Positions 1 to 64,000 of a stretch of 64,000 nucleotides of DNA are shown here, piece after piece. The position numbers and the translations under genes are program-made. The DNA comes from Escherichia phage Ec_MI-02: the sequence record OP856590.1, one strand, 5' to 3'. Within the stretch, counting starts at the first letter, position 1; each line of letters begins with the position of its first letter. The notes beneath the pieces are model-generated. The model was given only the letters and a program-made list of their open reading frames with translations, was not told the origin of the DNA and ran no database searches.

Positions 1-1936
1 TCAAAGCACCGTGGTTAATAACTCTACTGGTACAGCAGCTTTGGCCGGTAAATTCCAGTGGGGTCCTGCTTTTCAAATTAAACAGGTTACAAATGAAGTA
101 GATTTAGTTAATACTTTTGGTCAACCTACAGCTGAAACTGCTGACTATTTTATGTCTGCAATGAATTTCTTACAATACGGAAATGATTTGCGAGTTGTGC
201 GTGCTGTCGATAGAGATACCGCTAAAAACTCATCTCCGATTGCCGGTAATATTGAATACACTATTTCTACCCCAGGTAGTAACTACGCGGTTGGAGATAA
301 AATCACGGTTAAGTATGTTTCAGAAGATGTTGAAACAGAATGTAAAGTTACCGAAGTAGATGCTGATGGAAAAATTAAGAAAATTAATATTCCTACCGCA
401 AAAATTATCGCTAAAGCGAAAGAAGTAGGCGAATATCCAGCATTAGGTTCTAACTGGACCGCGGAAATTTCTTCGTCTTCCTCTGGTTTAGCTGCAGTAA
501 TAACTCTTGGAAAAATTATTACTGATTCTGGTATTTTATTAGCTGAAATTGAAAATGCTGAAGCTGCTATGACAGCTGTTGACTTTCAAGCAAATCTCGA
601 AAAATATGGAATTCCAGGAGTAGTAGCTCTTTATCCAGGCGAGTTGGGCGATAAAATCGAAATTGAAATCGTATCTAAAGCTGACTACGCAAAAGGTGCT
701 TCTGCATTACTTCCAATTTATCCAGGTGGCGGAACACGCGCATCTACTGCCAAAGCAGTGTTTGGATATGGACCACAAACTGATTCACAATATGCTATTA
801 TAGTTCGTCGCAATGATGCTATTGTTCAAAGCGTTGTTCTTTCAACAAAGCGTGGTGAAAAAGATATTTACGATAGTAACATCTATATTGATGACTTTTT
901 CGCAAAAGGTGGTTCAGAATATATTTTCGCAACTGCACAAAACTGGCCAGAAGGCTTCTCTGGAATTTTAACTCTGTCTGGTGGATTATCATCAAATGCT
1001 GAAGTAACAGCAGGAGATTTGATGGAAGCTTGGGACTTCTTTGCTGACCGTGAATCTGTTGATGTTCAGTTGTTTATTGCGGGTTCTTGTGCCGGTGAAT
1101 CTTTAGAAACAGCATCTACTGTCCAAAAACACGTCGTTTCAATTGGGGATGCTCGCCAAGATTGCTTAGTACTGTGCTCACCGCCGCGCGAAACTGTAGT
1201 TGGAATTCCTGTAACTCGCGCTGTTGATAACTTAGTCAACTGGAGAACCGCAGCAGGTTCATACACTGATAATAACTTTAATATCAGTTCAACTTATGCA
1301 GCAATTGATGGTAACTACAAGTATCAGTATGACAAATATAATGATGTAAATCGTTGGGTTCCATTAGCAGCTGATATTGCTGGTTTATGCGCGAGAACCG
1401 ATAACGTTTCTCAGACTTGGATGTCTCCAGCTGGTTATAATCGCGGCCAGATTTTGAACGTTATTAAACTTGCTATTGAAACTCGCCAGGCGCAGCGCGA
1501 TCGTTTATACCAAGAAGCTATCAACCCAGTAACTGGTACAGGTGGTGATGGTTACGTATTGTATGGTGATAAAACAGCTACTTCTGTTCCTTCTCCATTT
1601 GATCGTATTAACGTTCGTCGTCTGTTTAATATGTTGAAAACGAATATCGGACGTAGTTCAAAATATCGTTTGTTCGAATTAAACAACGCGTTTACTCGTT
1701 CATCGTTCCGCACAGAAACTTCCCAGTACTTGCAGGGAATTAAAGCTCTCGGTGGAATTTATGAATATCGTGTAGTTTGCGATACAACAAATAACACTCC
1801 GTCAGTAATTGATAGAAATGAGTTTGTTGCAACATTCTACATCCAACCGGCTAGAAGCATTAACTACATTACCTTAAACTTCGTAGCAACTGCTACTGGT
1901 GCAGATTTCGATGAGTTAACTGGTCTTGCAGGTTAA
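1..1936 (+). CDS. 18: Tail sheath protein gp18, 5' end outside window
   Basis: Frame open from window edge to TAA 1934-1936; translation VVNNSTGTAALAGKFQWGPAFQ recalled as T4 gp18; followed by 19 and 20 in T4 order. Confidence 0.9.
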   Translation, partial: QSTVVNNSTGTAALAGKFQWGPAFQIKQVTNEVDLVNTFGQPTAETADYFMSAMNFLQYGNDLRVVRAVDRDTAKNSSPIAGNIEYTISTPGSNYAVGDKITVKYVSEDVETECKVTEVDADGKIKKINIPTAKIIAKAKEVGEYPALGSNWTAEISSSSSGLAAVITLGKIITDSGILLAEIENAEAAMTAVDFQANLEKYGIPGVVALYPGELGDKIEIEIVSKADYAKGASALLPIYPGGGTRASTAKAVFGYGPQTDSQYAIIVRRNDAIVQSVVLSTKRGEKDIYDSNIYIDDFFAKGGSEYIFATAQNWPEGFSGILTLSGGLSSNAEVTAGDLMEAWDFFADRESVDVQLFIAGSCAGESLETASTVQKHVVSIGDARQDCLVLCSPPRETVVGIPVTRAVDNLVNWRTAAGSYTDNNFNISSTYAAIDGNYKYQYDKYNDVNRWVPLAADIAGLCARTDNVSQTWMSPAGYNRGQILNVIKLAIETRQAQRDRLYQEAINPVTGTGGDGYVLYGDKTATSVPSPFDRINVRRLFNMLKTNIGRSSKYRLFELNNAFTRSSFRTETSQYLQGIKALGGIYEYRVVCDTTNNTPSVIDRNEFVATFYIQPARSINYITLNFVATATGADFDELTGLAG

Positions 1937-1952
1937 TACGGTGCATTCTAAA

Positions 1953-1970
1953 GGCCTGTTTCGGCAGGCC
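1953..1970 (+). terminator. Hairpin after gene 18
   Basis: GGCCTG / CAGGCC stem, 6-nt loop; no strong U tract. Confidence 0.35.
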
Positions 1971-1971
1971 A

Positions 1972-1979
1972 TATAAATA
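1972..1979 (+). promoter_or_regulatory. Late promoter TATAAATA upstream of gene 19
   Basis: Exact TATAAATA; a second copy at 2031-2038. Confidence 0.55.
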
Positions 1980-2030
1980 CACTATATCCTTAATTCTTTA
2001 ATTCTATATGCCCTAGGTTAAACATAGGGA

Positions 2031-2038
2031 TATAAATA
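2031..2038 (+). promoter_or_regulatory. Late promoter TATAAATA, gene 19 proximal
   Basis: Exact TATAAATA 15 nt before ATG 2053. Confidence 0.5.
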
Positions 2039-2052
2039 CTACAGAGGCTAAT

Positions 2053-2544
2053 ATGTTTGTAGATGATGTAACACGAGCGTTTGAATCTGGTGATTTTGCT
2101 CGACCTAACTTATTCCAAGTAGAAATTTCTTATCTTGGACAAAATTTTACGTTTCAATGCAAAGCCACTGCTTTACCAGCTGGTATTGTAGAAAAAATTC
2201 CAGTCGGTTTTATGAACCGTAAAATTAACGTAGCAGGCGATCGTACATTCGATGACTGGACTGTTACAGTAATGAACGATGAGGCACATGATGCTCGCCA
2301 GAAGTTTGTTGATTGGCAAAGCATTGCTGCTGGGCAAGGGAACGAAATTACTGGTGGAAAACCAGCAGAGTATAAAAAGAGCGCTGTTGTTCGCCAATAC
2401 GCTCGTGATGCTAAAACTGTAACAAAAGAAGTCGAAATTAAAGGCCTGTGGCCTACTAACGTGGGTGAACTTCAATTAGATTGGGATTCAAACAATGAAA
2501 TCCAAACCTTTGAAGTAACTCTTGCTCTCGATTATTGGGAATAA
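2053..2544 (+). CDS. 19: Tail tube protein gp19
   Basis: 163-aa ORF, ATG 2053 after AGAGG; sequence MFVDDVTRAFESGDFARPNLFQ recalled as T4 gp19; synteny. Confidence 0.9.
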   Translation: MFVDDVTRAFESGDFARPNLFQVEISYLGQNFTFQCKATALPAGIVEKIPVGFMNRKINVAGDRTFDDWTVTVMNDEAHDARQKFVDWQSIAAGQGNEITGGKPAEYKKSAVVRQYARDAKTVTKEVEIKGLWPTNVGELQLDWDSNNEIQTFEVTLALDYWE

Positions 2545-2576: not shown

Positions 2577-4201
<1,625 letters not shown>

Positions 4202-62124: not shown

Positions 62125-62585
62125 TAGTAAAGGTCCTCAGAGTAAAGTTCTTTTTCACTACCACCGCGTTCAATACGTACTTGTCCGGCGTAAGTTGCAA
62201 TAATCATTGCTTCTTCACGTGTCCAATAATTACTATATTGGTCAATAAACCCTTGGTCATCATCACAAACTTGTTGAGTAACTAATTGAGGTTTAACTAC
62301 ATCTAAAACTTCTGCCATATCTTTAGAATAATGACGAGCACCCGGAATAACAAGAGTTCGTCCATCTTTTAATTTAAAACGGTTGGCTGCGCAAACAATT
62401 CGTCGTTGATATTTTTGGTTTTCGTCCCAATACGCAGTCTGCCAACAGATTTCAGGAACTTCATCTAAAACATTTTGTTCTGTGTATTCACCACTGTAAG
62501 AAGCTAATTTAGCAGCCAAACTTTCTGGAGTCTCACGTGACAAAGCTTTATCTAACAGAGCTAAACGTTCTTTAAAAGTTTTCAT
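62124..62585 (-). CDS. Hypothetical protein (arn.x region)
   Basis: 153-aa ORF, ATGA coupling on both sides. Confidence 0.5.
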
Positions 62586-62911
62586 TTAAACCATCCTTTA
62601 ATACGCTGCCACAAAGTTTTCTGTTGAGCTTTATTAACACCAATTGAGCGAATAACTGGTTGAGATTCCTGGAATTCTTTATAATCAGCAAGGTAAATTT
62701 CGTAAGCTGCATCCGTAAATGAACTTATCGCCGCCATAAAATTATTGCGAATACCTACTGGAGCATCTTTACTTTCACGAATAATCATGTATTTACCAGT
62801 CTTAATCTTTACGATAGTTCCAAGATAAGCTCCGTGGTACCAGATGTCCCATCCCTCTTGAGTGGGTTCTGCACAACGACGAAGTTCATTAACAATTTCT
62901 AACTTGTTCAT
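62582..62911 (-). CDS. Hypothetical protein downstream of motA
   Basis: 109-aa ORF. Confidence 0.5.
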
Positions 62912-62921
62912 TATTTATTCC

Positions 62922-63557
62922 TCACAGTTCAGATGCTACGGTGATTACTGCTTCAATGTTTTCTGCCGAGCGTTTAATGTCAAGATACACATTACCGTTT
63001 TTAGCGATTTTACATGACATTCCGATATCAGTAAATTTCTGAATATGATGTTCCATCATTTTGTATCCAAAAATTCGCATATTTCCGTTGTTGTTAATTT
63101 CAAAATTGCGAATTCCGTGAGTGCGTTTTTCTAAAATAGCAAGATAGTTACTGCGGTAAGTTTCAACCTTTTTAAGAACAAATCCATTTTCATCTAAAAG
63201 TTTTAACATGAAGTCTTTATCTTCTTCCATATCGGAAGTAATCTCACGAGCTTTACGAGTTGCTCGTTTTTTCAGCAGTTCAGGAGCATTTTCCTGTGCG
63301 TATAAAGTTGCTGCGTTTGAAATAATATCCTGAGCTTCACCAGTAATGATTAATCCATCACCAGATTTCTCCACCAGGCCTTTTTTAATCAATACCCCAA
63401 TATTACTATTAACTACTGCATTACCTAAATCTGGATGCACCTCACGAACTTCTGCAGCTGTAATGAAATCTTTCTTAGCAATGGTAATTAAAATCGCAGC
63501 AGTTTTTTCATTCAGAACATCGTTAGAAGCTTTGATGATGTAAGTTACTTTAGACAT
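62922..63557 (-). CDS. motA: MotA middle-transcription activator
   Basis: 211-aa ORF (T4 MotA length); early promoter plus terminator cassette upstream. Confidence 0.85.
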   Translation of the reverse strand: MSKVTYIIKASNDVLNEKTAAILITIAKKDFITAAEVREVHPDLGNAVVNSNIGVLIKKGLVEKSGDGLIITGEAQDIISNAATLYAQENAPELLKKRATRKAREITSDMEEDKDFMLKLLDENGFVLKKVETYRSNYLAILEKRTHGIRNFEINNNGNMRIFGYKMMEHHIQKFTDIGMSCKIAKNGNVYLDIKRSAENIEAVITVASEL

Positions 63558-63598
63558 TTTCTAATCTCCGTAATTCTGTATCAGTAGTTGATAGTTGT

Positions 63599-63628
63599 AT
63601 AGTACCACAGTATGCTTTGGTTGTAAAC
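63599..63628 (-). promoter_or_regulatory. Early promoter for motA
   Basis: On - strand GTTTACA-16 nt-GGTACTAT with upstream A/T tract; follows terminator 63661-63680. Confidence 0.6.
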
Positions 63629-63660
63629 CATTTTGTGAAAAAATTTTTTGAAATAAAAAA

Positions 63661-63680
63661 GGGAGAGCCGAGGCTCTCCC
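63661..63680 (-). terminator. Terminator upstream of motA promoter
   Basis: GGGAGAG...CTCTCCC then TTTTTTATTT on - strand. Confidence 0.7.
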
Positions 63681-63685
63681 TAAAA

Positions 63686-63835
63686 TTACTGCATGACTGT
63701 GATAACTGTCATGATAACACGTTGAATTCCGAACGCAAGAAGACCTCCTGCTACGGCAGGAACAACACCTAAACCCGCCAGTAAAACGCAACCAGATACT
63801 AATGCAGCGCTTGTAATACCTATGAATGGACTCAT
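63686..63835 (-). CDS. Unannotated 49-aa hydrophobic membrane peptide
   Basis: Hand translation MSPFIGITSAALVSGCVLLAGLGVVPAVAGGLLAFGIQRVIMTVITVMQ; ATGA overlap with upstream ORF stop; terminator directly downstream. Confidence 0.45.
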   Translation of the reverse strand: MSPFIGITSAALVSGCVLLAGLGVVPAVAGGLLAFGIQRVIMTVITVMQ

Positions 63836-64000
63836 TTGATTTCCTCTAAATCTTTGGTGTATTCTGTAACTACATCAGTAGTTTTCCAATATTCGTTTTC
63901 TTCTTTTTTAGCTTTAGCTTCTTCAGCAAGTTTCTTTGCTTCGTCGGAAGTCATATGAAAAATATTCATTCCAACTAGTTTATCAACATAAGAAGAATAC
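63832..64000 (-). CDS. 3' end of a gene continuing beyond window (possibly gene 52 by T4 synteny)
   Basis: Frame open to window edge; C-terminus ...AKKLAEEAKAKKEENEYWKTTDVVTEYTKDLEEIK; identity not established. Confidence 0.4.
   Translation of the reverse strand, partial: YSSYVDKLVGMNIFHMTSDEAKKLAEEAKAKKEENEYWKTTDVVTEYTKDLEEIK

Follow-up and report, generated by a model that had tools for sequence, protein, structure and literature searches.

The hydrophobic gene motA.1 at the end of gene 52 in a T4-like Escherichia phage, and its positional counterparts in T-even-type phages

A 64,000-nucleotide (nt) stretch of Escherichia phage Ec_MI-02 (record OP856590.1), referred to below as the window, carries on its minus strand an open reading frame (ORF) of 49 amino acids (aa), which a preliminary description made from the letters alone had taken for the gene of a small hydrophobic membrane-type peptide. 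The results of this work show that the ORF is orthologous to motA.1 of phage T4, to which this phage of the genus Tequatrovirus is closely related, that it is a protein-coding gene under purifying selection, and that it closes the gene 52 transcription unit as its final cistron, in a layout implying translational coupling to gene 52. They also show that what most T-even-type phages with a gp52 at least 67% identical to that of T4 have conserved is an arrangement, namely gene 52 followed by a coupled transmembrane (TM) mini-protein and a terminator, and not a sequence. Taking all of this together, we hold it probable that motA.1 of the Tequatrovirus genomes is a real gene whose product is a small inner-membrane helix, made along with gp52 and serving in an accessory role.

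Identity, coding evidence and layout of motA.1

The minus-strand ORF at 63686..63835, as read from the window sequence, translates exactly to MSPFIGITSAALVSGCVLLAGLGVVPAVAGGLLAFGIQRVIMTVITVMQ. Its T4 counterpart occupies 163730..163879 of NC_000866 and encodes NP_049874.1 (UniProt P39512, Y16H_BPT4). The region of the window is 98% identical to phage T4, and within the gene 145 of the 150 nt and 47 of the 49 residues (96%) are the same; three of the five nucleotide differences are synonymous and two conservative (C16 and V17 in the window, S16 and I17 in T4). Apart from these two residues the T4 protein is the same gene product in the same place, and the synteny with T4 is complete, covering the order gene 52, motA.1, motA as well as the ATGA overlap, the terminator and the length of 49 aa. 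The comparison with the T4 motA-52 junction that the preliminary description had suggested thus gives an identical junction, and its placing of the gene upstream of motA is also borne out.

The coding character of the ORF was assessed on 16 distinct DNA copies of motA.1, taken from T4 relatives and metagenomes. Their variable columns are distributed over codon positions 1, 2 and 3 as 12, 4 and 26. The motA.1 frame has a pooled ratio of nonsynonymous to synonymous differences (pN/pS) of 0.19 and a Jukes-Cantor corrected ratio (dN/dS) of 0.17, compared with 0.89 and 3.4-3.5 for the other two forward frames, which is what a real coding gene should leave behind. The conservation of the frame in related phages, singled out beforehand as the point on which the proposal could fall, is therefore there. 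Stops are present in every antisense frame of every copy, and an antisense gene was rejected on this ground, the pN/pS of 0.29 in antisense frame 1 being the usual artefact of aligned wobble positions. An alignment of 15 members reaching down to 37% identity contains no gaps, although two metagenomic proteins and the CIP9-like version of Enterobacter/Kosakonia phages have diverged to 37-53% identity, and virtually every member is 49 aa long. Ten residues are invariant in this alignment (M1, S2, F4, G6, A10, A11, L12, G15, G21 and R39), and all ten are found in the window peptide.

Could the ORF nevertheless be a chance one, lying in an untranslated 3′ region of gene 52? It is very short, its protein is absent from proteomics, and T-rich phage DNA is able to give hydrophobic ORFs. 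The low dN/dS and the third-position bias speak against this, as do its persistence intact in about 470-500 Tequatrovirus records, its divergent homologues of equal length, its good Shine-Dalgarno sequence, its start/stop coupling, and a hydrophobicity above that of all 2000 nucleotide shuffles. The codon-level tests effectively refute the chance reading, to which we leave next to no probability.

The layout on the 5′ side is compact. The ATG of motA.1 (63835..63833) and the TGA of the preceding gene (63834..63832) share the tetranucleotide ATGA, as had been noticed before, and a GAGG (63846..63843) lies 7 nt 5′ of the ATG. The preceding gene, left without a name in the preliminary description, is the 3′ end of gene 52, coding for the medium subunit of topoisomerase II: its 45-aa fragment in the window matches phrog_551, DNA topoisomerase II, with an E-value of 2e-13, and the same stretch is labelled gene 52 or DNA topoisomerase in T4 and relatives.

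On the 3′ side, the strong terminator already noticed after the ORF is confirmed and begins 4 nt past the stop codon. Its hairpin has a stem of 9 base pairs (bp), six of them GC, a loop of four and a TTTTTTATTT tail, and its free energy of -21.1 kcal/mol (z-score -5.5) was equalled by none of 200 shuffles; a ‘motA.1’ terminator also appears in a published terminator table (PMC5931544). The stem is the same in T4 and the difference is restricted to the loop, which reads CTCG in the window, CGAG in T4 and TTCG in UFV13 (the last taken from PMC5931544), also on an identical stem, as would fit a hairpin that is under selection whatever the sequence of its loop. Since this terminator and the promoter of motA both lie between the two genes, motA.1 belongs to the gene 52 unit and not to that of motA. 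An Rfam scan of 63300..64000 returned only sub-threshold matches to the terminator hairpin (the tails of CrcZ, sraA and SorY) and none at gathering score, which lends no support to an RNA gene here. A second hairpin, weak and only terminator-like, with seven pairs and a poor T tail, sits at 63745..63762 on the minus strand, within codons 25-30 of motA.1; it is probably incidental, one of its stem positions being altered in T4. The suspicion that the 76-aa ORF partly covering this region is spurious proved right (Table 1).

The preliminary description went astray in calling the gene unannotated, which is true only of the size-limited ORF table from which it worked: motA.1 is an already catalogued, uncharacterised T4 gene with a Pfam family of its own, it is annotated in most of the hundreds of Tequatrovirus records that contain it, and the ORF itself is not new. 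The peptide matches PHROG 3487, of function unknown, over residues 1-49 of 49 (E = 1.1e-30), and precomputed tags assign to the Pfam family PF26886 (Phage_T4_Y16H) both the identical database protein, which comes from Escherichia phage Ec_MI-02, and all homologues. A Pfam scan of the peptide gave no significant match, be it to a MotA_activ/MotCF domain or any other, with a library copy that predates PF26886. Public records name the peptide ‘transcriptional regulator’, ‘flagellar motor protein MotA’ or ‘periplasmic protein’, none of which fits the sequence; the first two labels appear to have been propagated from the name of the gene, and were discarded here given the absence of any domain in the Pfam scan and a peptide of only 49 aa, almost wholly hydrophobic and with a single charged residue.

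Membrane character and topology of the product

The peptide has a grand average of hydropathy (GRAVY) of 1.66, a value that, taken as anything above 1.6, is attained by 2.4% of all 20-60 aa six-frame ORFs of the window; its Kyte-Doolittle hydropathy is at least 1.3 in every 19-residue window, and R39 is its sole charged residue. AlphaFold2, supplied with the family alignment, returns a single unbroken helix over residues 3-48, with a mean predicted local distance difference test (pLDDT) score of 88.8. These features suggest an integral inner-membrane helix of 49 residues, with neither a cleavable signal peptide nor a soluble domain. The boundary on the cytoplasmic side is probably marked by R39, the only invariant charge, together with the aromatic residue at position 35, so that the most likely orientation would have the N-terminus facing out and the C-terminus facing in. 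The invariant small residues G6, A10, A11, G15 and G21 appear to form a helix-packing face of the small-xxx-small type, with the motifs G6xxxA10 and A11xxxG15.

Bacteria possess a class of small TM regulatory and accessory proteins, such as AcrZ (49 aa), MgrB (47 aa), MgtS, KdpF (29 aa) and CydX (37 aa), of which KdpF and CydX share an operon, and are co-translated, with the complex of which they become part. MotA.1 resembles them in its size, its predicted single hydrophobic helix, its few charges and its small-xxx-small motifs, and both its hydropathy and the helix modelled by AlphaFold2 are consistent with this single-helix class, its insertion in the membrane being a prediction. Neither Pfam nor NCBI-scale nor profile searches, however, brought out any sequence homology to them, and the neighbour with which MotA.1 is co-translated, gp52, is no membrane complex but a soluble enzyme acting on DNA. 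Among the proteins of T4 itself, Ac (51 aa), 52.1 (46 aa), Stp (26 aa) and Ndd.2 (36 aa) are of the same size class, come from the early region flanking gene 52 and, except for Stp, are hydrophobic; unlike motA.1, their genes are upstream of gene 52 and not coupled to its stop. The kinship to Ac or Stp that had been considered possible finds no support, as BLASTP of MotA.1 against all four gave no match even at lenient settings, without SEG filtering or composition correction.

In T4, RB32 and other records the product is labelled ‘predicted periplasmic protein’, and a reading of it as secreted or periplasmic, with a signal peptide that is cleaved off, could find some comfort in the A-V-A at residues 27-29, which resembles a signal-peptidase site at the end of a hydrophobic N-terminus. 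Judged from the sequence, there is no positively charged n-region, nor any K or R before R39; a cut after A29 would leave 20 residues that are still hydrophobic and include no soluble domain; the A-x-A is not kept in the CIP9-like or metagenomic members, and the lipobox-like VSGC of this peptide is unique to the window. Such a protein is essentially excluded, and we grant it scarcely any credence.

Nowhere in the N-terminal half of the family does the residue vary more than at position 16, yet it is always small there. The codon for this position in the window (63788..63790, TGC) gives Ec_MI-02 a cysteine, and with it a lipobox-like V13-S14-G15-C16, where all other copies have G, S or A. A bacterial lipoprotein was rejected, as Cys16 occurs only in this variant and the match to LPAM_1 has an E-value of 1.1 and 10.3 bits, against a cut-off of 20 bits. 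A holin or type I toxin likewise finds no support, given an early transcript, a gene 52 unit with no adjoining lysis genes and the lack of a charged C-terminal tail; for the toxin, there is in addition neither an antisense ORF nor an Rfam match at gathering score.

Hydrophobic mini-ORFs at the end of gene 52

A script search found very hydrophobic mini-ORFs at the gene 52 stop in Jiaodavirus, Mosigvirus and Dhakavirus, unannotated in the records read for all three genera, and the survey extended to 37 gp52 loci taken from IMG/VR, 35 of them scoreable. In 28 of these 35, an ORF of 22-59 aa with a GRAVY of 1.2-2.7 starts at or beside the stop of gene 52, the junctions consisting of 25 ATGA/TTGA overlaps, two TAATG overlaps and one GTG start 7 nt downstream. 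A GGAGG or GAGGA stands within the last codons of gene 52 in most of the 28, and in eight of 12 representative loci the terminator starts no more than 7 nt from the stop of the peptide. The mini-ORFs make up about ten sequence families, only some of which are detectably related (Table 1); those other than the CIP9-like and CHI14 versions show no recognisable similarity to MotA.1.

Neither the positions nor the composition of these ORFs are what chance would easily offer. Only one of the 61 other long ORFs of the window is followed by a coupled small ORF with a GRAVY above 1.2, a level reached by 7% of all 20-60 aa ORFs in the window, and no comparable mini-ORF comes after T4 genes 39 or 60. 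Four families besides MotA.1 have a pN/pS of 0.15, 0.08, 0.25 and 0.19 in the frame of the peptide. The T fraction in the mini-ORF families is 0.51 at codon position 2, as compared with 0.24 at position 1 and 0.40 at position 3; all 11 families examined in this way are above the mean hydrophobicity of their own nucleotide shuffles, with p < 0.03 in nine of them. K and R are confined to the C-terminal part in six of the 11, which gives a hint on topology.

The mini-ORF is absent from the PG7-like locus and from phages whose gp52 is at most 63% identical to that of T4. At the gene 52 junction of the PG7-like Karamvirus locus (about 2800..2820), which reads AAAGAAATCAAATAA where T4 has GAGGAAATCAAATGA, both the Shine-Dalgarno sequence and the ATG are lost, and this is a clean example of loss of the cassette. 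A frameshift fusing gp52 to the peptide was considered as a general mechanism and rejected, no slippery heptamer being common to the junctions.

The slot between gene 52 and motA is itself variable, with different ORFs sitting in it in other genera. Tequatrovirus fFiEco06 has an extra 75-aa ORF (locus 883..1110) between the motA.1 terminator and motA, identical but for two residues to the one that Dhakavirus IME281 has there (1871..2098), which suggests a recent exchange between genera in this slot. On the other side of motA, directly downstream, the window has a 109-aa ORF (62582..62911, minus strand; T4 arn.4, Pfam Phage_T4_Y16F) with 75% identity to the protein in the same position in Mosigvirus JN02; the T4 reference is open only for its C-terminal 68 aa, annotated arn.4 (T4 locus extract 1128..1334). 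A probable ortholog of its product is AV110 Gp94 ‘Emp’, an early protein of 109 aa adjoining MotA and reported to target MreBCD (bioRxiv 10.64898/2026.09.14.751387). That preprint was set aside as a source on the 49-aa peptide, the gene it deals with being on the other side of motA.

Table 1. Positions of motA.1 and its surroundings in the window, and gene 52-coupled mini-ORFs in T-even-type phages
Feature	Position	Strand	Length	Basis or remark
motA.1 ortholog, hydrophobic peptide gene	63686..63835 (stop codon included)	-	49 aa	ORF, T4 alignment, PHROG, Pfam, dN/dS
ATGA overlap of motA.1 start and gene 52 stop, translational coupling site	63832..63835	-		sequence; same junction in T4
Shine-Dalgarno GAGGA for motA.1	63842..63846	-		read from sequence; inside last gene 52 codons (…LEEIK*)
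3′ end of gene 52, topoisomerase II medium subunit	63832..64000 (continues past window end)	-		phrog_551; annotations of T4 and relatives
Intrinsic terminator closing the gene 52-motA.1 unit	63650..63681 (stem 63681..63660, then T-run)	-		fold, T4 comparison, published table
Sigma-70 early-type promoter of motA	63599..63627	-		TTTACA, 17-nt spacer, TACTAT, TG upstream; same in T4
motA, activator of middle transcription, downstream neighbour in separate unit	62922..63557	-	211 aa	tblastn 100% identity to annotated MotA; T4 annotation
TTG-start ORF of the ORF table, not a gene	63561..63791	-	76 aa	frame +2 relative to motA.1, pN/pS 3.4; crosses terminator and motA promoter
Tequatrovirus (MotA.1)			49 aa	
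CIP9-like (Enterobacter/Kosakonia phages)			49 aa	45% identity, only clear MotA.1 homologue among the analogues
Dhakavirus			34 aa	pN/pS 0.08
VR20-like			32 aa	
Unplaced form			29 aa	
Mosigvirus			26 aa	TTG start; pN/pS 0.25
Jiaodavirus			23 aa	too few changes to judge selection
Klebsiella phage Marfa			59 aa	
Serratia phage CHI14			46 aa	weakly similar to MotA.1
Pectobacterium phage PM2			22 aa	
Yersinia phage fHe-Yen9-01			26 aa	
Unannotated mini-ORF, Klebsiella phage KPV15	locus 1584..1655		22-34 aa	missing from GenBank/RefSeq annotation
Unannotated mini-ORF, Escherichia phage JN02	locus 1692..1772		22-34 aa	missing from GenBank/RefSeq annotation
Unannotated mini-ORF, phage IME281	locus 1649..1753		22-34 aa	missing from GenBank/RefSeq annotation
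Unannotated mini-ORF, Pectobacterium phage PM2	locus 2814..2882		22-34 aa	missing from GenBank/RefSeq annotation
Unannotated mini-ORF, Yersinia phage fHe-Yen9-01	locus 1773..1853		22-34 aa	missing from GenBank/RefSeq annotation
Unannotated mini-ORF, Escherichia phage VR20	locus 2823..2921		22-34 aa	missing from GenBank/RefSeq annotation

Possible roles of MotA.1 and of its counterparts

Going by the layout, ribosomes that finish gp52 would re-initiate on motA.1, and the peptide would be produced early in infection and in step with gp52, whilst motA would be transcribed separately, from its own promoter after the terminator. The role of the peptide would be accessory rather than essential. By analogy with AcrZ, MgrB and KdpF, it might pack against another TM protein, or against itself, and so tune a membrane process in early infection, a proposal to which we would give roughly even chances. 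The modulator of a membrane process suggested in the preliminary description would be a reasonable guess. The T4 motA.1 transcript has been detected and assigned to the early class (PMC9697503, Table S2); in the literature searched, ‘motA.1’ occurs in main text only within the terminator table mentioned above (PMC5931544) and no paper discusses the protein itself, and a search on membrane association of gp52 and on coupled small hydrophobic ORFs brought up nothing relevant.

Several observations weigh against our reading of MotA.1 as a small membrane helix with an accessory role. The protein was not detected in the T4 proteome (Class_P ‘NA’; PMC9697503, Table S2), which is weak evidence, as a hydrophobic peptide of 49 aa with one tryptic site would be expected to escape shotgun mass spectrometry. 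In a genome-wide CRISPRi-ART screen of T4, motA.1 was scored ‘Semi-Fit’ among the genes of unknown function, a term standing for large effects that vary between guides, and gene 52 was scored ‘Fit’ (bioRxiv 10.1101/2023.09.18.558157, Supplementary Text S2); the guides tile 35 nt around the start codon, which in the case of motA.1 is the end of gene 52, so that, with guides that overlap a ‘Fit’ gene and disagree among themselves, the score is confounded and no more than a hint in favour of this reading. The family is restricted to T4-like phages of enterobacteria (23 clusters in 5.8 billion proteins; four clusters in 1.84 billion representatives), a hidden Markov model search of the representatives and a broadened profile search of the 5.8 billion proteins having returned 49-aa phage and metagenome members only and no bacterial or functionally annotated relative, and with so narrow a range no function can be transferred by homology. 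As to topology, the hydrophobic stretch of approximately residues 4-37, with the hydrophobic tail added to it, exceeds the length of a single span, a hairpin turn could be made by the Gly/Pro/Gln-rich centre (residues 21-31), and the straight helix of AlphaFold2, a monomer modelled outside any membrane, is not decisive. Finally, its absence from PG7-like and more distant phages means that the mini-ORF is dispensable in some backgrounds.

The close association with gene 52 makes it tempting to speculate that the partner is the topoisomerase itself, the peptide and its positional analogues tethering gp52 to the inner membrane or recruiting it there, and with it the gp39/52/60 topoisomerase and the complexes of early replication, in a stoichiometry set by the coupling. 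A hydrophobic mini-ORF is tied specifically to the 3′ end of gene 52 in about ten sequence families, with nothing of the kind after genes 39 and 60 and only once after the other long ORFs of the window; the start/stop overlap is typical for co-produced partners; and gp52 is termed ‘membrane-associated’ in the GenBank record of RB32. Fractionation studies of the 1970s are said to have found both gp39 and gp52 in membrane fractions. The pairing of a ‘Fit’ gene 52 with a ‘Semi-Fit’ motA.1 in the CRISPRi-ART screen (bioRxiv 10.1101/2023.09.18.558157) points the same way. Yet the shortest forms, of 22-26 aa, are essentially all TM and would have no soluble surface to offer a cytoplasmic enzyme; the peptide sequences are wholly different between genera whilst the C-terminus of gp52 is well conserved, with no evident co-variation; PG7-like phages retain gp52 and do without the peptide; no link between the two was found in the literature searched; and the linkage may simply reflect a convenient slot for expression at the end of an early operon. 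On balance we consider this partnership unlikely, and just as unlikely its wider form, in which the mini-proteins, fast-evolving and often left unannotated for being only 22-34 aa long, would be a conserved TM module, made along with gp52, that connects to the inner membrane either the topoisomerase with the machinery of early replication or the gene 52 message under translation.

It might alternatively be the translation of the mini-ORF up to the terminator that matters, and not the peptide. A ribosome stopped 4 nt before the hairpin could mask it and so affect the level of read-through into motA, or it could make the gene 52 mRNA more stable at its 3′ end. The short distance between peptide stop and terminator stem (at most 7 nt in eight of the 12 representative loci) would suit such a cis-acting role, and so would an amino acid sequence not conserved between genera and a length that ranges from 22 to 59 aa. 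Within five families, however, amino acids are under purifying selection (pN/pS 0.08-0.25), the MotA.1 family is strictly of 49 aa with invariant residues down to 37% identity, and hydrophobicity is kept in every family in a frame-specific manner, through T at codon position 2, whereas a purely cis-acting ORF would need neither. Besides, motA has a strong promoter of its own, and terminators often abut stop codons in compact phage genomes. We regard a purely cis-acting ORF as very improbable, well below even the topoisomerase tether.

In conclusion, the rediscovery of the ORF as such adds nothing, motA.1 being an ordinary, catalogued hypothetical gene of T4. What this work does provide is codon-level proof that the gene is real, and with it a correction to widespread mislabels, as well as a new, if modest, comparative observation, that of the cassette and its unannotated members, several of which, in their versions of 22-34 aa, are absent from reference annotations. 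Were the topoisomerase tether to hold in spite of its low probability, MotA.1 would be the first named ‘gp52-coupled membrane anchor’, of a class set by position and physics and not by sequence, and such a module would account for the old reports of membrane-associated gp52. Independently of this, a TM mini-protein cistron at the stop of gene 52 recurs over many T4-like genera despite complete turnover of its sequence, and in view of this arrangement and of the ‘Semi-Fit’ score, motA.1 seems a sensible choice for targeted knockout.

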